Below, piece by piece: positions 1,439 through 57,634 of a stretch of 64,000 nucleotides of DNA. The DNA lies in the sequence record OM858838; one strand, 5' to 3'. The translations under genes and the position numbers were made by a program. The stretch is from Shigella phage B2. Each line of letters begins with the position of its first letter. Within the stretch, counting starts at the first letter, position 1. The notes under the pieces are model-generated. The model was given only the letters and a program-made list of their open reading frames with translations. It did no database searches and had not been told where the DNA came from.

Positions 1439-1683
1439 TGGATATCGCATTTGTAGTATCAAAAGTAATTGTTACAGAGTACACACTGCTTAGGCAGTGG
1501 TGGCCTGAACAGTTACGCGAGTCTAGATATGTCGATACAGATATGACTAGAACCTACTTCTTAGATAGACTTCCCTCTCCTGAATTGTATGAGCTTATGG
1601 ATAGGCTTAATGCAGAAGGAAGAACCTATCGATTTATGGACTTAAGAGGAGTGGACTCAGAAGATGCGTCACATAATCTTTGA
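1438..1683 (+). CDS. hypothetical protein
   Basis: 81-aa ORF in tightly packed + strand operon. Confidence 0.4.
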   Translation: MDIAFVVSKVIVTEYTLLRQWWPEQLRESRYVDTDMTRTYFLDRLPSPELYELMDRLNAEGRTYRFMDLRGVDSEDASHNL

Positions 1684-3319
1684 ACAGAACCAAAGATATC
1701 CAATAGCAATTCTCATCAAACCACAGCAACTAAAGAAGCGTGAGTTACAGGAAGCGTATATCGACCCTACTGGAATCAAGCCAAAGCAATTCATTGCATT
1801 TGACCTTGAGTACAATGGTAAGAAAGCTCCTGTATCTATGCAGAAAGACTATCTTAAAGACCTGTTACCAGAGCTATGCAACTTAAGAACAGAGTATGTT
1901 CTATGTTGCGATAGTGCTTACTTCAAGACTCTAACCAAGCAAACCAAAGCAGAACCTCATTATGGTTATGTATTGCCTTGTGCTATTGCTGGTTTCGAGC
2001 ACTTGAATATTATCTTTTGTCCTAACTATGCTCAGATTTTCTATGACCCATCAGTTCAGGATAAAGTCGATTTAGCACTTAAAGCATTGGTAGATAAAGT
2101 GAATGGGCAATACCAAGAGATTGGTAAGGATATTATTCATTCTGCTTATTACCCTTCAACAGTTGAAGACATTGAAGCTTGGCTTGAATCTCTTCATCAA
2201 TATCCAGTATTGGCGTCAGATATTGAGGCATTTAGCCTCAAATTCTATACAGCAGGTGTAGGTACTATTGGTTTTGCATGGGACCAACACAATGGAGGAG
2301 CATTCGCTGTTGATTACACGAATGAACCAGACAAGGCTAATAGGATAAGGCAGGCTCTTAAGAAGTTCTTTGAAACTTATAAAGGCAAACTGATTTGGCA
2401 TAACGCTAGTTATGACTTAACAGTGCTTATCCATCAGCTTTGGATGAAAGGTCTAATAGACCAGAAAGGACTGCTTAAGGGGTTGCATATTATGTGTCGT
2501 GATTTTCACGATACTAAGATTGTAACTTATCTGGCTACAAACTCTTGTGCAGGTAATGAATTGGGACTGAAAGCTCAGGCTCATGAATTTGCTGGCAACT
2601 ATGCACAAGAAGATATTAATGACATTACTAAGATTCCTCTTCCAGAGTTACTGGAATACAACTTAGTTGACTGTTTAAGCACTTGGTATGTTGCAGACAA
2701 ACATGCAGATACTATGGTGCTGGATGAACAGTGGGAAATCTATAATGACCTAATGTTACCTTCGCTGAAGAATATTATTCAGATGCAATTAACTGGTATG
2801 CCTATTGATATGGCAGAAGTTAAGAAGGTTAAAATAGAGATGACTAAAGAGCGTGATGGATATCTCAATGCTATCCGTTCATTTGCTGTAGTAGATTTAC
2901 TAGTTCATAACTTGCGTGAACAACATGTAGCTACTCGTAATGCTGCCCTTAAAACCAAGCAAATTACAATGTCTGATGATGAGACATTAAAAATAGAGTT
3001 TAATCCAAACTCTAACCCTCAGATGCAAGAACTCTTGTATGAGATTATGGGATTACCTGTAATCGATTATACCGAATCTAAACAACCTGCTACTGGAGCA
3101 GATACTTTAGATAAGTTAATTAACCATACAACAGATGACCGTCAGAAAAAGATACTCGAATGCCTTATTAAGTATTCTAAGGTAGAGAAGATTTTATCTG
3201 CATTCATCCCTGCATTTGAAGAAGCACCTTTAGCCGAAGATGGTAACTACTATCTGTTCGGTAGCTATAACTTAGGTGGTACTGTATCCGGTCGTTTGAG
3301 TTCATCAAAGCCTAAATAA
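1664..3319 (+). CDS. family-A DNA polymerase, 5' part (3'-5' exonuclease + N-terminal polymerase region); putative exon 1 ends at 3313
   Basis: 551-aa ORF with exo motif FDLEY and C-terminal GRLSSSKP, the first half of the conserved Pol A motif RLSSS-PNLQNIP; stop codon 3317-3319 lies inside the proposed intron. Confidence 0.8.
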   Translation: MRHIIFEQNQRYPIAILIKPQQLKKRELQEAYIDPTGIKPKQFIAFDLEYNGKKAPVSMQKDYLKDLLPELCNLRTEYVLCCDSAYFKTLTKQTKAEPHYGYVLPCAIAGFEHLNIIFCPNYAQIFYDPSVQDKVDLALKALVDKVNGQYQEIGKDIIHSAYYPSTVEDIEAWLESLHQYPVLASDIEAFSLKFYTAGVGTIGFAWDQHNGGAFAVDYTNEPDKANRIRQALKKFFETYKGKLIWHNASYDLTVLIHQLWMKGLIDQKGLLKGLHIMCRDFHDTKIVTYLATNSCAGNELGLKAQAHEFAGNYAQEDINDITKIPLPELLEYNLVDCLSTWYVADKHADTMVLDEQWEIYNDLMLPSLKNIIQMQLTGMPIDMAEVKKVKIEMTKERDGYLNAIRSFAVVDLLVHNLREQHVATRNAALKTKQITMSDDETLKIEFNPNSNPQMQELLYEIMGLPVIDYTESKQPATGADTLDKLINHTTDDRQKKILECLIKYSKVEKILSAFIPAFEEAPLAEDGNYYLFGSYNLGGTVSGRLSSSKPK

Positions 3320-4025
3320 ATTGGGCTGTTTAAACTTCGTGAATTCGGGGAAAATCCAGAACGGACAATCCCGAGCCAAGTCAACCAATCATGTCTTAAG
3401 AGGCAGAATGGACACTAAAAAATTAGAATATTTATATGAAAACACTTCTTTATCTCAGAAAGAGATTGCTAAGTGTTTAGGATTAAAATCTGCTAGGGCT
3501 GTTCAAAAATATTGTTACAGACACTATACAAGTGCCTATCGTAAAGAAAGGCATTCCAAGCTATTAGCTAAAGCTAAACTAGGAAGTTTAAACCCTATGT
3601 TTGGTAAATCTGGTTTATACCACCCCAGATATCTAGGAGTTGTCTCTGACAACAAAGGGTATTGGATGGTATTAAAACCAGAGTGGTATACAGGGCGTAA
3701 AAGCAGTAAGCATGTATTTTTACATTCTGTAGTTGTATGTGAACATCTAGGATGGACAGAAATACCGAAAGGGTATGTAGTTCATCATTGTGATTTTGAC
3801 CCATCAAATAATGATTTTGATAATTTAGTGGTGCTTACTGTAGCAGAACATATGAGCTTACATGCAGCATTGAAAGGTGTAACGACTATCTCGAAAGAGA
3901 GTACACTCAAGTGGGTGGAAGCGCGAAGGGCTGGTAACAGCCATGATATAGTCTGACCTGTATAGGAATATACAGCAGCACTGAATAGTGCGAGTACAGC
4001 TTAACGAACTGTACTGAACGTAGTG
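3314..4025 (+). other. putative group I intron in DNA polymerase gene (carries HNH endonuclease ORF)
   Basis: 5' splice site after U3313; exon agccu can pair with intron gggcu (3323-3327) as P1 with U.G at the splice site; intron ends on G4025; hairpins ctgtata-ggaa-tatacag and gtacag-n9-ctgtac in 3' region; splicing 3313/4026 gives in-frame GRLSSSKP-NMQQIP. Confidence 0.55.
3418..3956 (+). CDS. HNH homing endonuclease (intron-encoded)
   Basis: HNH motif HHCDFDPSNNDFDNLVVLTVAEHMSLH; start moved to ATG 3418 with GAGG RBS (track start 3321 lies in intron 5' structure). Confidence 0.75.
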
Positions 4026-4967
4026 AATATGCAACAAATCCCATCCTCTAAGAGTCCTTATGCCAAGCCTATTAAGCGATGCTTTAAAGCTGGTAAAGGT
4101 TGGCTTCTTATTGGGTTAGACTTTGCATCTCTAGAGGACCGTATTTCAGCTCTGACAACCAAAGACCCCAATAAACTTAAAGTTTATACTGATGGGTATG
4201 ATGGTCATTCTCTCAGAGCATTCGCTTACTTTGGCGACCAAATGCCTGATATTCAGAATACAGTGGATAGTATTAATAGTATTCAGGACTTATATAAGGA
4301 CTTTAGACAAGAATCTAAAGCTCCTACTTTTGCACTTACCTATCAAGGTACTTATCACACATTGATGGCTAACTGTGGCTTCCCAGAAGACAAAGCGAAA
4401 ATGGTTGAAAAGAGGTATCACGAACTCTATTTCGTCTCTGACCAATGGGTAGACGCCAAGTTAGCACAAGCCAGCAAAGATGGTTATATCACTGCTGCAT
4501 TCGGATTAAGAATCCGTACTCCATTACTCAAAAATGTTGTCTGGGGAATTAAACAAACACCATATGAAGCCAAAGCAGAAGGCAGAACTGCTGGTAATGC
4601 TTTAGGTCAGTCTTGGTGCTTGTTAAATAACCGAGCAGCAAATGAGTTTATGGAACGTGTATGGAATTCTCCTTATGCAGATGTAATCAAACCATGCGCT
4701 CAAATTCATGATGCTCAGTATTATCTGGTTCCAGATGATATTGATATTGTTCATTGGGTTAATGAGAACTTAGTTGAGTGTGTTCAATGGCAAGACCATC
4801 CCGATATCTATCACGAGGAAGTGAAGTTAGGAGGAGATTTAAGTGTCTTTTACCCATCATGGGCTAATGATATCTCCTTAAAGAATGGAGCTTCTAGAGA
4901 AGAAATCTTAGATACATGTGAAGTTGGATTGGATAAGTATCTTCACCCGGAGAAATATAAAAAATGA
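4026..4967 (+). CDS. family-A DNA polymerase, 3' part (palm/fingers); putative exon 2
   Basis: NMQQIP completes the split motif; motif A LDFASLEDRI, motif B KAPTFALTYQGTY, motif C QIHDAQY. Track ORF starts at GTG 4023. Confidence 0.8.
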   Translation, partial: NMQQIPSSKSPYAKPIKRCFKAGKGWLLIGLDFASLEDRISALTTKDPNKLKVYTDGYDGHSLRAFAYFGDQMPDIQNTVDSINSIQDLYKDFRQESKAPTFALTYQGTYHTLMANCGFPEDKAKMVEKRYHELYFVSDQWVDAKLAQASKDGYITAAFGLRIRTPLLKNVVWGIKQTPYEAKAEGRTAGNALGQSWCLLNNRAANEFMERVWNSPYADVIKPCAQIHDAQYYLVPDDIDIVHWVNENLVECVQWQDHPDIYHEEVKLGGDLSVFYPSWANDISLKNGASREEILDTCEVGLDKYLHPEKYKK

Positions 4968-5341
4968 GTATCTTACAGTCCCCTATTGATAATGCTCCTG
5001 CAATCTTACAGGAAGCACATCGTTGTATTGCTGACAGAGCACATGAACGTGACCAAGAATCTGAACGTTCAATGGAACGCACTGTAGCAGCCTTCAATGC
5101 AATGTATAAGCTCAACCTGACAGAAGAACAGGGTTGGATGTTTATGGTCTTCCTGAAAGCTGCAAGAGCTTCAGGAGGCTCATTCAAGCTTGATGACTAT
5201 GTTGATGGCTCTGCTTACTTTGCGTTAGCTGGTGAAGCTGCTATGCCACATCCTCAATTAGAACTGTCACTTTCTGAACCAGAAATGACTAGAAAACATG
5301 CAGAACATTTCGGAATTCCATTAGGAAAGGAACAAATCTAA
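4964..5341 (+). CDS. hypothetical protein
   Basis: 125-aa ORF, start overlaps polymerase stop. Confidence 0.45.
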   Translation: MSILQSPIDNAPAILQEAHRCIADRAHERDQESERSMERTVAAFNAMYKLNLTEEQGWMFMVFLKAARASGGSFKLDDYVDGSAYFALAGEAAMPHPQLELSLSEPEMTRKHAEHFGIPLGKEQI

Positions 5342-6105
5342 TGCAAGTTAAGTATGTAGACCATATGGGTAATGACCAACGTATTGTTGATGTTGCTCGT
5401 CAGTCATTTGCTAAGACAGATGCCACTGTACGTACTGAAGCTCAGAACCAAGGATTGATTCGTTATTTAGCTGAAGGTATTTCTTCTAAAGAAAGAGATT
5501 CAATTATCTTATCTATCCTGAAAGGTGTAAGTAATGAATTCTATTTTGATACTGAAGAAGATGCCGAGAAAGCTGCTGAAGAATTGTATAGAGATATTCG
5601 TCACCAAGCAGTGCATTGGACTCCATTTGCTCATACTGCAATAACCCTTCAGATGCAGGCTCCTATTCCTATTCGTACCCAAGCTTTTAAACATAAGCAG
5701 GGTTTAGTAGAGAATGAGGAATCTCGTCGATATATCAGTACAACGCCTGAAATATTTGTACCTGAATTTCGTTTAAGACCTGAAGGTTCAATCAAGCAAG
5801 GTAGTGCTGGTATTCATCCTGCTAATGATGATTGGAAACATACATACATTCAGATGACACAGGATGCTGTGTTTACTTATGAACGTATGATTGCAGAAGG
5901 TATTGCTCCTGAACAAGCCAGATTCATCTTACCTCAAGGTGTAGAAGTTAACTGGACTTGGACTGGCAACTTATTAGCTTTTGCTAACTTCTATAACAAA
6001 AGAAGTGATGCCCATGCTCAACAAGAAATCCAAGATTTAGCTGAGATGGTTCGTGCAATCATTGAACCACTATTTCCAATATCTTGGAAAGCTCTTACTC
6101 AATAA
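5341..6105 (+). CDS. ThyX-like flavin-dependent thymidylate synthase (variant signature)
   Basis: Recalled ThyX blocks: VDHMGNDQRIVDVARQSF, TPFAHTAITLQMQAPIPIRTQAF, ESRRY, ARFILPQGVEVNWTWTGNLLAFANFYNKRSDAHAQQEIQDLA; canonical RHR appears as KHK. Confidence 0.65.
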   Translation: MQVKYVDHMGNDQRIVDVARQSFAKTDATVRTEAQNQGLIRYLAEGISSKERDSIILSILKGVSNEFYFDTEEDAEKAAEELYRDIRHQAVHWTPFAHTAITLQMQAPIPIRTQAFKHKQGLVENEESRRYISTTPEIFVPEFRLRPEGSIKQGSAGIHPANDDWKHTYIQMTQDAVFTYERMIAEGIAPEQARFILPQGVEVNWTWTGNLLAFANFYNKRSDAHAQQEIQDLAEMVRAIIEPLFPISWKALTQ

Positions 6106-6115
6106 GGATTAACTT

Positions 6116-6745
6116 ATGTCTGTACGTTTAACTAATGCTGCTCGTGATGAAATCGTAAAAGCTGCTGTAAATAAATCTGGTTTTCCTAAACGTATCGAAG
6201 AAGCACGTACTGCTTTAGAAGATATTAAAATGGAATGCTGGATTGCAGCATTTGGTGGATTAAAAGCTTATCGTCGTTTATGTGACCGCTTTGAAACCAT
6301 TGAAGAAAAGATTAGTGAACTTCGCAAATCAGGTGTGAATGTACCAAGTCTTGGTTCAGGGCATACTTGGAGCAATTCCAAACTGAACCTCGCAGGTATG
6401 CAAGTTCCATCTCCCGATATGAATTGGGTATCGGATAAGTTTAAAGAGTTACGTGTCATTTATATGTATGACAGTAAACCTACTTTAACTGCGGATAACC
6501 CATTGGTTCAGAAATTCCTTGATGCTGAAAAAGCATTAGAAGATTTGAAATCATCTCGTCAACAAATCAAAGACAACGTTCAAGCAGTAGTTTACTCAGT
6601 ATCTACTACCAAACGTTTGATTGAAGTATGGCCTGAATCTGCTGAACTGATTCCAAGAGAAGTTGAAGTAGTTCGTGCAGGTTTACCTGCTATTAACTTT
6701 GAAAGTCTGAACGCATCAATTGGTATTCCATCCGAGAAGAAATAA
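6116..6745 (+). CDS. hypothetical protein
   Basis: 209-aa ORF in replication module. Confidence 0.45.
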   Translation: MSVRLTNAARDEIVKAAVNKSGFPKRIEEARTALEDIKMECWIAAFGGLKAYRRLCDRFETIEEKISELRKSGVNVPSLGSGHTWSNSKLNLAGMQVPSPDMNWVSDKFKELRVIYMYDSKPTLTADNPLVQKFLDAEKALEDLKSSRQQIKDNVQAVVYSVSTTKRLIEVWPESAELIPREVEVVRAGLPAINFESLNASIGIPSEKK

Positions 6746-49519: not shown

Positions 49520-49762
49520 ATGGTAAAAGACCCACTTGCTCTCTCATTAGAAAAACGTAAGCTATGGAGAAGGGCTGCTACTCGATGGTTAGAACTATTA
49601 ACATCCAGAGACTTAACAGCTACTGAGATGGATTGGGTCTTAGCCAGAAGAGACTATTGCACTAGAAAGACTAAGAGAGCAGAACCTCTTATAGATTCTG
49701 GAGTAATACACGGAGCACCTAACTCATTTATCTATGATTACTTTGGCTTTCTCCGTAAATGA
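49520..49762 (+). CDS. hypothetical protein
   Basis: 80-aa ORF followed by a 9-bp hairpin at 49766-49788. Confidence 0.35.
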   Translation: MVKDPLALSLEKRKLWRRAATRWLELLTSRDLTATEMDWVLARRDYCTRKTKRAEPLIDSGVIHGAPNSFIYDYFGFLRK

Positions 49763-50360: not shown

Positions 50361-50373
50361 GAGTCTTCGACTC
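50361..50373 (+). promoter_or_regulatory. TTC-loop hairpin + GTGGAG (vRNAP-type promoter candidate)
   Basis: gagtc-ttc-gactc then ta-gtggag, ~45 nt upstream of 50419 ORF. Confidence 0.4.
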
Positions 50374-50418
50374 TAGTGGAGCAATGGTGCTCTACTTAAT
50401 CATGATTAGGAGTATGTT

Positions 50419-51173: not shown

Positions 51174-51203
51174 ACTTACTTCGTAAGTATCTCACTTCGT
51201 GAG
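51174..51203 (+). promoter_or_regulatory. tandem pair of TTC-loop hairpins (promoter candidates)
   Basis: acttac-ttc-gtaagt and ctcac-ttc-gtgag, 3 nt apart. Confidence 0.4.
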
Positions 51204-51205
51204 TA

Positions 51206-51544
51206 ATGGGTAGAGCAAAAGAGAGAATTCACATGGCTATCATCCATTCAATCATTGGTTCTAATTCAGAACCATCAACAGTAGTAGTCAACAAGTATAA
51301 GGAACCATACGATGTATATATCGGTAGAGGTAGTCTATGGGGAAATCCTTATACAGTTCAAGAACATGGCAGAGAACTATGCATTGCAATGTATGAGCAA
51401 TACATACGTGCAAGACTACATCAAGAACCTGATTTATATCTTCAATTACTTGAGCTTAAAGGTAAGAAGCTAGGCTGCTTCTGTAAACCTAAACCATGTC
51501 ATGGTGATGTATTAGTTAGACTCATCCAAGAGTACTCAAACTAA
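51206..51544 (+). CDS. conserved-domain protein (YIGR...WGNP...CxC...CHGD motif), start uncertain
   Basis: DVYIGRGSLWGNPY...GKKLGCFCKPKPCHGDVL; true start may be the internal Met at 51233 because the hairpins abut 51206. Confidence 0.45.
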   Translation: MGRAKERIHMAIIHSIIGSNSEPSTVVVNKYKEPYDVYIGRGSLWGNPYTVQEHGRELCIAMYEQYIRARLHQEPDLYLQLLELKGKKLGCFCKPKPCHGDVLVRLIQEYSN

Positions 51545-52453: not shown

Positions 52454-52470
52454 ATCACCGTCTTCGACGG
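52454..52470 (+). promoter_or_regulatory. TTC-loop hairpin + GTGGAG (vRNAP-type promoter candidate)
   Basis: caccgtc-ttc-gacggtg followed immediately by gtggag. Confidence 0.45.
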
Positions 52471-52506
52471 TGGTGGAGTTCTCCCTTAAGTTCTCCTTCT
52501 CCTGTA

Positions 52507-52521
52507 AGAGCGACTTCGTCG
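52507..52521 (+). promoter_or_regulatory. TTC-loop hairpin + GGTGGA (vRNAP-type promoter candidate)
   Basis: agcgac-ttc-gtcgct followed by ggtggaa; ~45 nt upstream of 52565 ORF. Confidence 0.45.
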
Positions 52522-52564
52522 CTGGTGGAATAATCCAATTCAATTAACTATCGAGGTAATTATC

Positions 52565-53405: not shown

Positions 53406-53609
53406 ATGAATGGAGATTTGATAGATATATTAGAACTAATAGTTGTTCTCAAATTAGGTAATAGAAATAAAGTATGTAACCACATAATGATACATAGAAT
53501 GTGTAATGATATTCCATGTAGTGAATGCCTACTTAATACAAGTAAAGTATATATTTCTGACTATCCAATTCAAATCATTGAAATGAAAGGTAAGCTAAAT
53601 GAACAATGA
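53406..53609 (+). CDS. small four-Cys protein, paralog family member 1
   Basis: MNGDLIDIL... with C-x8-C-x4-C-x2-C. Confidence 0.5.
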   Translation: MNGDLIDILELIVVLKLGNRNKVCNHIMIHRMCNDIPCSECLLNTSKVYISDYPIQIIEMKGKLNEQ

Positions 53610-53811
53610 TTTATTCTTAATTCTTAGTTCTATTAAAGCTGCATTAGGTGAAGGTAGAGGTAAAAATACTTCTGCTGATTTTCTATGTAATGGTATTCAT
53701 GATACTGACCCTGAACAATGTCATTATGTTAATTGTATTGATTGTATAGTTGGATATAAAGATTCAACTAAATATGCACATCAGATAATCCAGACATGGA
53801 AAATATTATGA
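53599..53811 (+). CDS. small four-Cys protein, paralog 2
   Basis: MNNDLFLILSSIK..., C-x10-C-x4-C-x2-C, C-terminal YAHQIIQTW. Confidence 0.5.
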   Translation: MNNDLFLILSSIKAALGEGRGKNTSADFLCNGIHDTDPEQCHYVNCIDCIVGYKDSTKYAHQIIQTWKIL

Positions 53812-54017
53812 ATAAAGAACTTAAGTTAATTTTATTTACTTTAAAAATGAAAATTAAATTTGGTAATGGAACTGCCGAAAACTTATGTAGAAGTATGGTA
53901 ATAGATATTGATGGAGAATTAATTCCTCAATGTACTCAAATTTCTTGTTTTAATTGTCTATTTTATCAAGATTCTACTTATGCAGAAAAGGTAATACATG
54001 TCTGGCATCAACTCTGA
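53808..54017 (+). CDS. small four-Cys protein, paralog 3
   Basis: Start at ATGA overlap; MNKELKLILFTLK..., four Cys, YAEKVIHVW. Confidence 0.5.
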   Translation: MNKELKLILFTLKMKIKFGNGTAENLCRSMVIDIDGELIPQCTQISCFNCLFYQDSTYAEKVIHVWHQL

Positions 54018-54243
54018 ATTATTATTCATACTTCAAAGTATTAAAAACTCTATGGCAAAAGAAGAAGTACAAAATAAGAGAGGTATTCAATGGGGAGAAT
54101 CAGATAAATTGTGTACAGAACATTTATATAATGTATGTGGGGATAAAACATCTAAAAATATATGTGATGATTGCTTAATTGGATACAAAGATAATGTTGG
54201 ATATGCATCCAATATGATTATTGTAATTCAAAAGTTAATCTAA
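53998..54243 (+). CDS. small four-Cys protein, paralog 4
   Basis: ...NSELLFILQSIK..., C-x8-C-x8-C-x2-C, YASNMIIVIQ. Confidence 0.5.
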   Translation: MSGINSELLFILQSIKNSMAKEEVQNKRGIQWGESDKLCTEHLYNVCGDKTSKNICDDCLIGYKDNVGYASNMIIVIQKLI

Positions 54244-54316: not shown

Positions 54317-54556
54317 ATGTCAAAGAAAACTAAGTCAGCTAAACCAGTAGAAGTTAAGTTAGGTAATGTTCCTGATTATACAGTGACTTATAGTCGTCAA
54401 GAACAGTTATGGGGAGTCCATATTAATGGTATCTCTGCATACATTCTCAAACGACCTATTGGTAAAAAGAATATGTATTACGTAGGTACTCGTTATTTCA
54501 AAACACTACGTGATGCAATCTTCAGTGTTGTATTGGGGAATTCACTTCCCTTCTAG
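54317..54556 (+). CDS. hypothetical basic protein (not of the Cys family)
   Basis: 79-aa ORF preceded by an AT-rich 8-bp hairpin at 54252-54271. Confidence 0.4.
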   Translation: MSKKTKSAKPVEVKLGNVPDYTVTYSRQEQLWGVHINGISAYILKRPIGKKNMYYVGTRYFKTLRDAIFSVVLGNSLPF

Positions 54557-54564
54557 GAGAAGTA

Positions 54565-54738
54565 ATGAACCAAGAGTTAATACTTATTCTCTCAGCCATT
54601 AGAGAAAATAAAGGAATATGTACTAAATATTCTGTTAAATGTCATGGAATAGATTGTGGAAACTGTATTCTAGCAGAAGTATATATACAAAACTTCTACA
54701 AAGATTATATAGTTAAAATGGGTGAGAGAATATTATGA
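54565..54738 (+). CDS. small four-Cys protein, paralog 5 (57 aa)
   Basis: MNQELILILSAIR..., C-x6-C-x4-C-x2-C; below track cutoff; stop overlaps next start. Confidence 0.45.
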   Translation: MNQELILILSAIRENKGICTKYSVKCHGIDCGNCILAEVYIQNFYKDYIVKMGERIL

Positions 54739-54965
54739 ATAGAGAATTACTAACAATAATAGAATCTCTATGTAAAAAGGTAGTATTTAAAAGCCATTCA
54801 GGGCTAGAGTTCATAGAAACTAAGCCTGAAATGTGTCGTATTATTTCATTAAGAGTTCCTCGTAGATGCGAAGGAACTAGTTGCTGTAATTGTTATTTCT
54901 CAAGGAGTAAACAATTACATGAAGTTTATACTTTATATTTAAAAAGACTTATTCAACGTATTTAG
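54735..54965 (+). CDS. small Cys-rich protein, paralog 6
   Basis: MNRELLTIIESL..., Cys cluster ending CCNC. Confidence 0.5.
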   Translation: MNRELLTIIESLCKKVVFKSHSGLEFIETKPEMCRIISLRVPRRCEGTSCCNCYFSRSKQLHEVYTLYLKRLIQRI

Positions 54966-54987: not shown

Positions 54988-55000
54988 CAGCCTTCGGCTG
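54988..55000 (+). promoter_or_regulatory. TTC-loop hairpin + GGTGAA (promoter candidate)
   Basis: cagcc-ttc-ggctg then ttctggtgaa, ~30 nt upstream of 55031 ORF. Confidence 0.35.
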
Positions 55001-55030
55001 TTCTGGTGAATTATAAACTTAGAGGTAAAT

Positions 55031-55534
55031 ATGTTAGAAGCTCGCGGTAATATGCTTGAAATGGAATGTGATGCGTTGTGCATTACTACCAATGGATTTG
55101 TTAAAAGCAATGGTGCATCAGTTATGGGTGCTGGTATTGCAAAGCAGATGCGAGTAACTATTCCTGGACTGGATAAAATTCTAGGTCAGAAGATTGCTCG
55201 TGAAGGTAACAATGTTCATTTCTTATTAAATTATAACAATATTGGAATTGTATCCTTCCCTGTTAAACCAATAACAGAAATTAGTAATGGTGAGAACTTT
55301 GTTAAACATAAGTTCTTCCCTGTAGGTACAACAGTTCCGGGATGGGCATGTAAAGCAAACATCGATTTGATTGTACGTTCATGCCAGCAACTGGTAGCAC
55401 TGGCTGACCAATATGGTTGGCAGAAAGTCTTATTACCAAGACCGGGATGTGGTGCTGGTGAGCTTAACTGGAGCCATGTGAAGAAGGTTATTGAACCTTT
55501 GTTAGATGACAGGTTTATCGTCTGCACCTATTGA
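55031..55534 (+). CDS. macro-domain-like protein (possible ADP-ribose binding/hydrolase)
   Basis: N-terminal DALCITTNGFVKSNGASVMGAGIA resembles the macro-domain Gly-rich block; 167 aa. Confidence 0.4.
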   Translation: MLEARGNMLEMECDALCITTNGFVKSNGASVMGAGIAKQMRVTIPGLDKILGQKIAREGNNVHFLLNYNNIGIVSFPVKPITEISNGENFVKHKFFPVGTTVPGWACKANIDLIVRSCQQLVALADQYGWQKVLLPRPGCGAGELNWSHVKKVIEPLLDDRFIVCTY

Positions 55535-55541
55535 GGTGAGT

Positions 55542-55745
55542 ATGGGTAACCAATTAATAGTAATATTTAAAGAATTACTTCACTCAGGAGTGAATCCTAC
55601 TTTATGTCATAACTATATTGGCACTGAATGTGTAGACATACCATCATGCGCAAATTGCCCTTTATCTAGTACTTCATTCGCAAAACATCCTGAAAGAAAT
55701 TTCCCTAATCAGTTATTTACTGTATTGGAGAAGTTGAATGGATAA
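55542..55745 (+). CDS. small four-Cys protein, paralog 7
   Basis: Start at ATG 55542 after GAGGTGAG; MGNQLIVIFKELL..., C-x8-C-x6-C-x2-C. Confidence 0.45.
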   Translation: MGNQLIVIFKELLHSGVNPTLCHNYIGTECVDIPSCANCPLSSTSFAKHPERNFPNQLFTVLEKLNG

Positions 55746-55968
55746 ATTAATTACCATTTTAAATGGAATATATAATTTACCTGAACGCAAAGACTACGCT
55801 CCAAAAGAGTACATATGTGATTTAATCATATGTCCTGATGTACTTTGCAGTAATTGTCCAATGGGCAACCCACATTATTTAAATCCTGACAAAGAATTAT
55901 TTGTCACTCAAATCCATAAAACATTGGAAGTCATGAACCATGAAACAAGAAACTCAACTCCTGATTGA
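55738..55968 (+). CDS. small four-Cys protein, paralog 8
   Basis: MDKLITILNGIY..., C-x4-C-x4-C-x2-C. Confidence 0.45.
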   Translation: MDKLITILNGIYNLPERKDYAPKEYICDLIICPDVLCSNCPMGNPHYLNPDKELFVTQIHKTLEVMNHETRNSTPD

Positions 55969-56863
55969 ATCTATGTTCAACCGTCACCAATCTCGTGACC
56001 TAATTAGAAATGAAATTAGAACTTCACCTGAAGTTATGGAGTTAGTTAGTGCTGCTGTAGATAAAGCACTGGAATGGGTAGAAGGTGATTACTTTGAAAG
56101 TAAGAACAAACGTCTGGCATTATTGGATACCAATATCCTAGAAGACTTCTACATTGATGTTGCTGGTTCATTGGCTCAATTTGGTAAGGCTAAGTATACC
56201 CAGATAGTAGGTATGGTATCTGGAATGATTTCTACTATGCCTCAGAAAGAGGCTATAAGGACTGCTGGAGAGCTTATCTCATTAGCAGCTATGGTAGACC
56301 TCATTGACCTGATTCCAGCCTCTATGAGCGTTACAGGCTCTATGGAACTGGTATCCCGTATACAGCTTGAACCAAAGACATTGGAACTGATTAACCAGTA
56401 TCAATATCTGCCTCCTATGCTTGTTCCCCCTGAACCAGTTAAATCAAATACTGGTAGTGGGTATCTGTCCATCAAATGGGATTCCCTGATTCTGAAGAAG
56501 AATCATCATGAGTTTGATATCTGTTTGGATAATATCAACAGATTTAACTCAGTAGCTTTCTCTCTGGATGACCGTGTAATCCGTAATATTAGGGATAACC
56601 GTAAACATCTGGATAGTGCTAAAGCTGATGAATCTGCTGATGAGTACAAAGCACGAGTTGATTCATTTCTGAAAATGGAAAAGGAATCTATGCGTGTATT
56701 TGCAATGCTCATCAATGAAGGGAACAGATTCTATCTGACTCACAAGTATGACAAACGAGGTCGTACTTACTGTCAGGGCTATCATGTCTCCTACCAAGGG
56801 AATACCTATCGTAAAGCTATTCTTGAATTAGCTGATAAAGAAATCGTACCCATTGAGGAATAA
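55940..56863 (+). CDS. RNA polymerase II small subunit candidate
   Basis: 307-aa ORF lying 770 bp upstream of the catalytic subunit gene, matching the two-gene RNAP II layout of N4-like phages; assignment is positional. Confidence 0.45.
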   Translation: MKQETQLLIESMFNRHQSRDLIRNEIRTSPEVMELVSAAVDKALEWVEGDYFESKNKRLALLDTNILEDFYIDVAGSLAQFGKAKYTQIVGMVSGMISTMPQKEAIRTAGELISLAAMVDLIDLIPASMSVTGSMELVSRIQLEPKTLELINQYQYLPPMLVPPEPVKSNTGSGYLSIKWDSLILKKNHHEFDICLDNINRFNSVAFSLDDRVIRNIRDNRKHLDSAKADESADEYKARVDSFLKMEKESMRVFAMLINEGNRFYLTHKYDKRGRTYCQGYHVSYQGNTYRKAILELADKEIVPIEE

Positions 56864-56865
56864 TC

Positions 56866-57006
56866 ATGTTTTGCATTATTACAGCAGCATATCTACGTCT
56901 TAAGAATAAGGTAGATGAAGATATAGTAATTGGTTCATGGCTTGCTGGTTTATTAGAGCTATGTCTTGAAGTACCAATGATTTTAACTTTAGCAGGTAAA
57001 CTTTAA
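56866..57006 (+). CDS. small hydrophobic ORF (46 aa)
   Basis: Tight coupling to flanking genes. Confidence 0.25.
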   Translation: MFCIITAAYLRLKNKVDEDIVIGSWLAGLLELCLEVPMILTLAGKL

Positions 57007-57242
57007 TGGCTGAATTATCCAAACCAGAACAACTCATTAAGATTACGCTATTACTGCGTGATATTCCTGATGAGTTAGAAAAACATTTCTGTAGTACTCA
57101 TCCTGCATGTGAAAAGTTTTGTGGTGCTGAGCATGACAAAACTAAATGTGCATTGTTCTATCTCTCTGAAGAAGAGATTAAGAAAACCATCTTTGGTCTA
57201 GATGCAGCAGGGAGGATGCTGGGAATCATTCCTGATGAATAA
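57006..57242 (+). CDS. small Cys-containing protein
   Basis: 78 aa with C-x5-C-x3-C-x7-C; possibly a divergent relative of the paralog family. Confidence 0.4.
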   Translation: MAELSKPEQLIKITLLLRDIPDELEKHFCSTHPACEKFCGAEHDKTKCALFYLSEEEIKKTIFGLDAAGRMLGIIPDE

Positions 57243-57417
57243 GGAATTAGTATTAATTCTTAGAGAATTGAAAAAAGCATCTGAAATACAAAACTCATGT
57301 TTTGGAACTAATTTCAGAGATTTTTCATGTACAAATGTTGATTGCCCTCAATGTATATTAAGTAACGTTAATAAATCTTTCAGATATTCAAGCCAAATTG
57401 TATTGGTGAATCTATGA
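57235..57417 (+). CDS. small four-Cys protein, paralog 9
   Basis: Start at internal ATG 57235; MNKELVLILRELKK..., C-x9-C-x4-C-x2-C. Confidence 0.45.
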   Translation: MNKELVLILRELKKASEIQNSCFGTNFRDFSCTNVDCPQCILSNVNKSFRYSSQIVLVNL

Positions 57418-57626
57418 ATGATGAATTGATTCTTATATTGGATTCATTCAGAAATTATTCAGTTAAAGATGGCTCATGTAGAGGAGATATATTCAATTTA
57501 ACAGGAACTTTTACACGTACACAGCAATGTGATGGCAAGTGTATTTCATGCCCATTAGTACAAATACGTGATAAAAAAATATATCCAGACCAAATCATTA
57601 TAACTTTCTCTCAACTAAATAAGTGA
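57414..57626 (+). CDS. small four-Cys protein, paralog 10
   Basis: MNDELILILDSFR..., C-x16-C-x3-C-x2-C, YPDQIIITFSQL. Confidence 0.5.
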   Translation: MNDELILILDSFRNYSVKDGSCRGDIFNLTGTFTRTQQCDGKCISCPLVQIRDKKIYPDQIIITFSQLNK

Positions 57627-57634
57627 GACTCAAG

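Follow-up and report, generated by a model that had tools for sequence, protein, structure and literature searches.

An orphan DarG-like macrodomain protein among the early genes of an N4-like Shigella phage, with a probable role in counter-defense

The open reading frame (ORF) at 55031..55534 on the plus strand of Shigella phage B2 (sequence record OM858838) poses the question of what a small protein with a glycine-rich N-terminus does among the early genes of a phage. It runs from ATG to stop, stop codon included, and encodes 167 amino acids; all positions refer to the 64,000-nucleotide stretch of DNA that was analyzed, hereafter the window. The original prediction, made by eye, regarded the product as a macro-domain-like protein that could reverse host defense based on ADP-ribosylation or degrade signaling nucleotides, and these two guesses are now the two leading hypotheses. 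The closest resemblance of the protein is to the antitoxin DarG, which makes it probable that the gene is a counter-defense gene of the sort shown in phages T4 and PhiKZ, both of which encode an anti-DarT factor macro (AdfM). By comparison with these proteins, the reading ranked first, at a probability of about 45%, is that the product is an orphan AdfM-like (DarG-type) DNA ADP-ribosyl-glycohydrolase produced early by an N4-like phage.

The ORF is a real gene under purifying selection. The ratio of nonsynonymous to synonymous changes (pN/pS) against sister-phage orthologues of 75-98% nucleotide identity is 0.12-0.28, and a Shine-Dalgarno sequence, AGAGG (55021..55025, plus strand), lies 5 nucleotides before the ATG and is kept in all relatives compared. 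A 90%-clustered protein database contains 1142 homologues at E<=1e-3, and 3192 representative clusters of a 50%-clustered database match it, 1775 of them at E<=1e-10. Together with the conservation scored in an alignment of 40 homologues, in which identity falls to 48%, these numbers place both the ORF and its glycine-rich block far beyond chance.

The assignment to the macrodomain superfamily depends on which profile is consulted. The Pfam Macro family (PF01661) matches only the C-terminal half (residues 98-153) at E=0.0019 and 18.6 bits, below the gathering cut-off of 22, and is by itself too weak to decide the matter; because several homologues of 50-70% identity carry a precomputed PF01661 match, the low score reflects sequence divergence rather than a missing fold. 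Significant matches come from the dedicated DarG profiles, namely the NCBIfam model antitoxin_DarG (NF048014; E=1.2e-10 and 41.2 bits against an equivalog cut-off of 250, with only the macro part of the model matched) and the PADLOC DarG model (1.9e-10), while PHROG 335, which is labeled 'phosphatase', matches at 3.4e-27. A family profile built from the 40-sequence alignment recovers, among Protein Data Bank (PDB) chains, DarG from Mycobacterium tuberculosis (5m3i, 1.3e-8) and Thermus aquaticus (5m31, 8e-8), the Thermosipho DarTG fusion (7omu, 6e-7, residues 8-160) and human TARG1/OARD1 (3e-6), its DarG and TARG1 matches spanning 1.3e-8 to 5e-6. Thus the Pfam part of a profile-level check on the original prediction fell short, and the part supplied by more specific profiles was borne out.

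Structural comparison leads to the same class. An AlphaFold2 model computed from the alignment reaches a predicted local distance difference test score (pLDDT) of 95.3 and a predicted template modeling score (pTM) of 0.90. In a Foldseek search of the PDB it matches three DarG macrodomains best (5m3e, 5m31 and 5m3i) and TARG1 next, all with probability 1.00 and template modeling (TM) scores of 0.65-0.78. All named entries among the 81 PDB matches at E<=1e-3 are macrodomains, with Poa1p (E of about 1e-4) and viral macrodomains roughly four orders of magnitude behind DarG, and the matches of the model in BFVD are phage macro proteins. Since every more sensitive sequence and structure test is concordant, the predicted three-layer alpha/beta/alpha macro fold of the DarG/TARG1 (ALC1-like) class can be considered secure, and what had been recognized by eye proves to be a divergent macrodomain with DarG at the top of both kinds of search.

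The glycine-rich block that gave rise to the original prediction corresponds to residues 21-39, NGFVKSNGASVMGAGIAKQ, and is well founded, as T20, N21, G22, G28, V31, M32, G33, G35 and A37 are invariant among the 40 homologues. Motifs were compared in an alignment that took in PhiKZ gp104 (its AdfM), T4 Tk.4 (the T4 AdfM), the DarG of a Klebsiella plasmid and several relatives, supplemented by hhalign. The block begins within a TTNG motif (T19-G22; 55085..55096, plus strand) whose N21 aligns with the Asn in the 'ITVN' of PhiKZ AdfM, and mutation of the conserved Asn in that protein (construct 'N23A') reduces its activity (PMC13309987). Glycine-rich loop 1, VMGAGIA (V31-A37; 55121..55141, plus strand), is the predicted ADP-ribose-binding loop and aligns with VMGKGVA of DarG and MGAGIA of TARG1. 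The FPVKP motif (F76-P80; 55256..55270, plus strand) has its aligned counterpart in the FPTK of PhiKZ AdfM and the Klebsiella plasmid DarG. It includes K79, whose alignment position matches that of the catalytic Lys of macrodomains of this class, K80 in T. aquaticus DarG and K84 in TARG1.

Glycine-rich loop 2, PRPGCGAGELNW (P136-W147; 55436..55471, plus strand), is the predicted diphosphate-binding loop and is invariant or nearly so; P136, R137, G139, G141, G143, E144, L145 and W147, as well as P77 and K79, do not vary in the 40 homologues. Both glycine-rich loops (VMGAGIA at 31-37 and PRPGCGAGEL at 136-145) align with those of DarG and TARG1, and it is loop 2 that separates the two. The corresponding TARG1 segment is PRIGCGLDRLQW, in which the position of the catalytic D125 is taken by G143 in the phage protein; this Asp is also missing from DarG and AdfM (GNGGL). 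The replacement of the TARG1-type Asp by Gly makes the protein DarG-like rather than TARG1-like.

Other features set the phage protein and its nearest relatives apart. A clade-specific insertion of about 25 residues (P80-G104; 55268..55342, plus strand) lies between K79 and W105, is modeled by AlphaFold2 as a beta-hairpin, and contains the conserved residues V91, H93, G99, P103 and G104 (40 homologues). By alignment, it occurs in long forms only and is found neither in DarG and AdfM nor in short-form relatives. A second clade-specific insertion, of 5-6 residues, follows the TTNG motif. Short forms are intermediate between the clade and DarG, having no large insertion and a loop 2, GCGNGGL, that resembles the one in DarG; one of them, a protein from a Rubrobacter plasmid, is 49% identical to the phage protein.

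The placement of the gene among early genes, also proposed by the original prediction, is supported by synteny with N4 and by a conserved promoter-like hairpin. The window belongs to an Ithacavirus-like schitovirus (N4-like): the megablast relatives of the region are the N4-like Salmonella phages vB_SenP_UTK0001 (95%), FSL SP-058 and SP-076 (both 91%), classified in Schitoviridae, Humphriesvirinae, Ithacavirus, and remoter relatives include Pollock (Escherichia coli) as well as Pylas and KpCHEMY26 (Klebsiella). The macrodomain gene is part of the early region at the left end, whose genes all share one strand. Upstream of it is a gene for a homologue of the N4 gp8 inhibitor of host DNA replication (54317-54556, plus strand; PF25713, E=1e-26), and downstream are the genes for the two subunits of N4 RNA polymerase II (RNAPII; 55940..56863 and 57623..58861, the latter matching PF00940). 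In N4, RNAPII is an early product transcribed by the injected virion RNA polymerase (vRNAP) (PMC4496689). The left end of the genome maps to about 49.2 kb in the window, so that the window and the FSL SP-058 record are circular permutations of each other.

Upstream of the macrodomain gene is a hairpin, CAGCC-TTC-GGCTG (54988..55000, plus strand), with a 5-bp stem and a 3-nucleotide loop, followed by TTCTGG, that is predicted to be an early promoter of the N4 vRNAP type. It is located 31 nucleotides upstream of the ATG, and its predicted +1 is G55005, 26 nucleotides before the ATG. Promoter-like hairpins are present at 50361-50380, 51191-51210, 52458-52477, 52510-52529 and 54988-55006, all on the plus strand; in each, a stem of 5 perfectly matched base pairs closes a TTC loop and is followed by TNNTGG, and such elements occur in the early region only and on this strand only. 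A pattern search with a T[AG]GTG tail returned four of them against 0.01 in shuffles, the fifth (51191) being added by eye. The stems covary within the window and across related phages, with a fully compensatory change in Pollock from CAGCC/GGCTG to CTGCC/GGCAG, and in FSL SP-058, Pollock, Pylas and a metagenomic relative the counterpart of the hairpin at 54988 starts 42-45 nucleotides before the ATG of the orthologous gene. On the template strand, the bases at positions -11 (A), -10 (G), -9 (C) and +1 (C) follow the promoter rules of N4 vRNAP, the recognition bases of which have been described (PMC4496689), and position -8 deviates from N4. Judged by these sequence features, the five hairpins are probably early promoters of the phage.

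Sigma-70 promoters were ruled out as the source of expression, since sites resembling them are depleted in the early region (23 between 49000 and 59500, against 41 +/- 6.7 in shuffles), a depletion that is consistent with transcription independent of the host RNA polymerase. Taken together with the conserved hairpin, this suggests that the macrodomain gene owns a vRNAP promoter, from which it appears to be expressed at the very start of infection. The hairpin at 51191-51210 overlaps the annotated start (51206) of another early gene, encoding a DUF4326 protein; the overlap suggests that the latter truly begins at its second Met.

Unlike DarG, the protein stands alone. Searches with jackhmmer and tblastn using a Klebsiella DarT query detected no DarT (DUF4433) toxin, whether in the window or across 91 related loci, and a query with the C-terminal domain of Klebsiella DarG likewise revealed no such domain in either. 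The phage protein ends where the macrodomain ends, and its gene is surrounded by small early phage genes and the RNAPII genes. With neither the toxin nor the toxin-associated domain, it represents an orphan macrodomain.

Its clade is essentially confined to phages and plasmids. Among 185,579 prokaryotic species, each represented by one genome, relatives were found in 11 loci only, all of them on contigs of metagenome-assembled genomes (MAGs). IMG/VR contributed 129 confirmed loci, with contigs of about 6-296 kb among the 80 kept, and GenBank phages contributed 59 records from unrelated lineages, including N4-like podoviruses, phages of Aeromonas, Shewanella and Vibrio, T4-like phages of Proteus and Morganella, and Bacillus phage SP-15; for comparison, 11% of podoviruses carry a macrodomain. 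A few plasmids (Rubrobacter, Chondrocystis, Methanomethylovorans) carry a homologue near relaxase or replication genes. No ADP-ribosyltransferase (ART) was found near these plasmid homologues, whose neighbors are hypothetical genes, and cellular homologues, with 11 MAG loci and plasmid neighborhoods of this kind, were therefore abandoned as a pointer to a cognate toxin. Patchy spread over mobile elements without such a toxin points to an accessory counter-defense gene.

Homologues of the protein have already received public labels, such as 'ADP ribose binding protein; Poa1p like macro superfamily' in the Pylas record (2018), 'macro domain-containing protein' for the Pollock homologue in UniRef, and elsewhere 'appr_1_p processing domain-containing protein' or 'phosphatase'. 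What is new is the placement in the DarG class with its conserved catalytic residues, the clade-specific insertion, the predicted early hairpin promoter dedicated to the gene, and the counts of linkage to SLOG and DUF4326 genes given below.

According to the AdfM-like reading, the protein would bind the ADP-ribose that host DarT2 places on thymidines of single-stranded phage DNA and would hydrolyze the base-ribose bond, with K79 attacking or activating the C1'' position, and phage DNA replication would continue in DarTG2 hosts. This reading is ranked first because of the shared PHROG 335, which also contains T4 Tk.4 and PhiKZ gp104, the scores against DarG profiles, and the occurrence of DarTG operons in the host group. 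An operon of DarT and DarG is present on an IncF/IncR plasmid of Klebsiella pneumoniae, and the related phage Pylas infects Klebsiella. On the DarG model NF048014, PhiKZ AdfM scores 138 bits, the phage B2 protein 41 and T4 AdfM 30; the latter pair of values indicates that the protein resembles DarG no less than one of the validated AdfMs does. Both AdfMs act against this defense system: PhiKZ gp104 strips DNA in vitro of the ADP-ribose added by DarT2, neutralizes the toxicity of DarT2 and is needed on hosts that carry DarTG2 (PMC13309987), and Tk.4 is the single gene that T4 needs to grow on DarTG2 (bioRxiv 10.1101/2025.11.20.689424). If the protein is of the AdfM type, orphan-antitoxin counter-defense against DarTG2 would extend from T4-like and nucleus-forming jumbo phages to schitoviruses. 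As N4-like schitoviruses of Salmonella, Klebsiella and E. coli are candidates for therapy, the gene would then predict host range on DarTG2 strains.

Several observations weigh against a DNA-directed activity of this kind. Identity to DarG macrodomains and to PhiKZ AdfM amounts to 20-25% only, and T4 Tk.4 is matched weakly at the profile level (hhalign probability 36.5%). Neither the insertion of about 25 residues directly after K79 nor the invariant E144 is found in DarG or AdfM, and both could reflect a different substrate. Moreover, members of the clade are recurrently fused or adjacent to SLOG domains of the YAcAr or YpsA type and linked to DUF4326. The substrate specificity of macrodomains is not readable from sequence, and the assignment of the clade is made by comparison. 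Given the linkage to SLOG and DUF4326 and the insertion beside K79, a small-molecule ADP-ribose substrate is the second, less probable candidate.

The corresponding alternative, ranked second, is that the protein hydrolyzes a small ADP-ribose derivative that host immunity uses as a signal or toxin, sharing this work with DUF4326 and, in other phages, with SLOG proteins. Candidate substrates include the Thoeris signals 1''-2' and 1''-3' glycocyclic ADP-ribose (gcADPR), His-ADP-ribose (His-ADPR), ADP-ribose-1''-phosphate and O-acetyl-ADP-ribose (OAADPr). Precisely this association was forecast in 2022 by Iyer, Burroughs, Anantharaman and Aravind, who described a network of Macro, SLOG, NADAR and DUF4326 that in phages would be directed mostly against soluble ADP-ribose derivatives (PMC9503650), and DUF4326 has been predicted by Aravind's group to act on the terminal ribose phosphate of ADP-ribose derivatives.

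The genomic neighborhoods are consistent with such a network. The window itself encodes a DUF4326 protein of 112 amino acids in the early region (51206..51544, plus strand; PF14216, E=4.3e-26), a possible functional partner. A DUF4326 gene lies within 5 kb of the macrodomain gene in 14 of the 91 related loci and is directly adjacent in three unrelated ones (L004, L036 and L074). SLOG genes (PF10686 or PF06908) are found within the same distance in 25 of the 91, often directly adjacent, and, once the loci are dereplicated at 70% identity, in 18 of 73 clusters. Fusions place a SLOG domain at the N-terminus of the macrodomain in one locus (L064) and at the C-terminus in another (L073), and on the archaeal Methanomethylovorans plasmid a SLOG gene directly precedes the macrodomain homologue. 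Among 21 multidomain close relatives in a library of 1.8 billion proteins, DUF4326 is present in three, YAcAr in three and DUF488-N3a in one. The insertion with its conserved His next to the catalytic Lys, in turn, suggests a remodeled pocket, and N4-like phages have been documented as a reservoir of genes that counter Thoeris and CBASS (bioRxiv 10.64898/2026.06.04.730250).

Against a soluble substrate stands, first, the homology itself, the best of which is to macrodomains that deconjugate DNA or protein (DarG, TARG1) and not to those that bind signals. Both phage macrodomains and the NADAR protein tested since 2022 act on DNA ADP-ribosylation, and a literature search found no phage macrodomain reported to cleave a Thoeris signal. 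In addition, the partner is variable: the early regions of FSL SP-058, Pylas and KpCHEMY26 encode a YAcAr-type SLOG protein of 119-125 amino acids, annotated as 'GTP-binding domain', whereas tblastn detected no SLOG gene in the window. The gene of FSL SP-058 (2312-2671 in its record, 1477-1836 in the locus extracted from it, L014) has no counterpart there. The presence of SLOG in sister phages and its absence here indicate that the accessory gene set for ADP-ribose or nucleotide metabolism varies among near-identical phages.

The association with SLOG is also not strictly discriminating, as SLOG domains include the single-stranded DNA-binding protein DprA. The related idea that the linkage mirrors DarG's own C-terminal domain, viewed as SLOG- or DprA-like, was not supported: the C-terminal region of Klebsiella DarG gives a sub-threshold Pfam match to DprA (E=0.01, 15.5 bits), and a profile of 15 phage SLOG sequences compared with that region yields an hhalign probability of 0.1%.

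Extended to the whole long-form clade, with its His-containing insertion and invariant loop-2 Glu, the proposal becomes that these proteins are not anti-DarT factors but the glycohydrolases of a Macro, SLOG and DUF4326 pathway. This is unlikely rather than likely, as is the associated view that the pathway would dismantle a signal or toxin derived from ADP-ribose, for instance by opening the ribose-ribose bond of gcADPR or cleaving His-ADPR. If true, it would provide the first macrodomain 'signal eraser' in phage counter-defense. Macro, SLOG and DUF4326 form a tractable three-gene set for the question, standing since the 2022 prediction, of whether such proteins address modified DNA or soluble ADP-ribose signals.

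It is improbable that the protein instead removes ADP-ribose from protein or RNA, undoing abortive infection triggered by host ARTs other than DarT2. Example targets would be mono-ADP-ribose linked to Glu or Asp of proteins, as for TARG1, phosphate-linked nucleic-acid ends, or mRNA modified by CmdT. TARG1 is nearly as close as DarG in profile and structure and has the catalytic Lys in common with the phage protein, TARG1-class macrodomains are promiscuous towards ester- and phosphate-linked ADP-ribose, and the basic nature of the protein (isoelectric point 8.5) fits nucleic-acid substrates generally. However, the TARG1 D125 position is occupied by G143, as in DarG, the dedicated DarG profiles give the best scores, and the data name no specific host ART as a partner.

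The proposal that the protein serves the takeover by the phage itself, trimming ADP-ribosylation made by a phage ART or clearing ADP-ribose-1''-phosphate (Appr-1''-p) left by RNA repair, is implied by the 'phosphatase' (RefSeq/PHROG) and Appr-1-p processing labels, the Poa1p-like superfamily cited for Pylas and the Poa1p structures in the Foldseek list, but is very improbable, given that the 'phosphatase' label goes back to the former name of the family, A1pp, and not to an assay, that Poa1p matches so much more weakly than DarG, and that no ART, KptA/Tpt1, RNA ligase or 2H phosphoesterase is among the Pfam families listed (25 of 29) for 41 window ORFs of at least 110 amino acids, a scan that left out small ORFs and the giant vRNAP, or is annotated in FSL SP-058 or in the first 40 kb of Pylas. 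A phage-encoded ART as partner was rejected on the same family list and sister-phage annotations.

Other features of the window concern its early region and its nucleotide metabolism. At least 12 paralogous small ORFs (57-81 amino acids) share an N-terminal M-N-x-E-L-x-L-I-L sequence and a central Cys-rich CxxC block; they lie on the plus strand at 53406-54243, 54565-54965, 55506-55968 and 57006-57626, around the macrodomain gene and between the RNAPII subunit genes, and the sequence repeats D5, D15 and D16 reflect their paralogy. The window also encodes a homologue of the PerC-like transcriptional activators (49520-49762, plus strand; PF06069, E=1e-11), an unusual find in a lytic phage. An HNH endonuclease ORF interrupts the gene for the family-A DNA polymerase (1664-3319, 3321-3956 and 4023-4967, plus strand; HNH PF13392, E=1e-10), exactly at Pfam profile position 126/127. 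This arrangement resembles the polymerase split by an intron or homing endonuclease that is annotated in Pylas, and the FSL SP-058 polymerase is uninterrupted. The ThyX gene (5341-6105, plus strand; PF02511) is directly followed by a gene for nucleotide modification associated domain 5 (Nmad5; 6116-6745, plus strand; PF18757, E=5e-56), and a dUTPase is encoded at 61535-61984. This combination hints at non-canonical pyrimidine metabolism or DNA modification, and such a modification could itself affect the targeting of thymidine by DarT.

Among known systems, the functional precedent for the AdfM-like reading is PhiKZ AdfM (Morgan et al., Cell Rep 2026, PMC13309987), likewise a stand-alone phage DarG-like macrodomain, of about 160 amino acids. 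Both proteins share the TxN Asn, the VMGAG loop, the FP[TV]K Lys and the GC-x-G-x-L loop; BLASTP gives 25% identity (E=2e-6) and hhalign a probability of 96.5%, with the phage B2 protein in a distinct clade marked by insertions. PhiKZ AdfM lacks both of these insertions, is far closer to DarG (138 versus 41 bits on NF048014) and reads GCANGGL in loop 2 where the phage B2 protein reads GCGAGEL. It is imported into the phage nucleus, a structure that N4-like phages do not build, and its activity has been demonstrated, whereas that of the phage B2 protein is predicted.

T4 AdfM (Tk.4), reported in the HIDEN-SEQ preprint (bioRxiv 10.1101/2025.11.20.689424), is another orphan phage macrodomain of PHROG 335 and was long annotated as 'phosphatase / A1pp', as are homologues of the phage B2 protein. 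Its similarity to this clade is only marginal (the hhalign probability of 36.5% cited above), and it contains no insertion and a Gln where the phage B2 protein, DarG and TARG1 have the catalytic Lys.

The DarG macrodomain itself (T. aquaticus, 5M31/5M3E; M. tuberculosis, 5M3I) provides the best profile and structure match, with the same Lys position and a Gly, not an Asp, at the position of TARG1 D125. DarG, however, is a two-domain protein of about 340-370 amino acids encoded beside DarT, with a C-terminal domain that binds the toxin, features that the 167-residue phage protein does without. Human TARG1/OARD1 (C6orf130; 4J5Q/4J5R/4J5S) is of the same class, with the Lys and the PR-x-GCG...L-x-W loop in common; it relies on a Lys/Asp dyad, of which the phage protein lacks the Asp (G143), and acts on Glu-linked protein ADP-ribose and OAADPr in eukaryotic cells.

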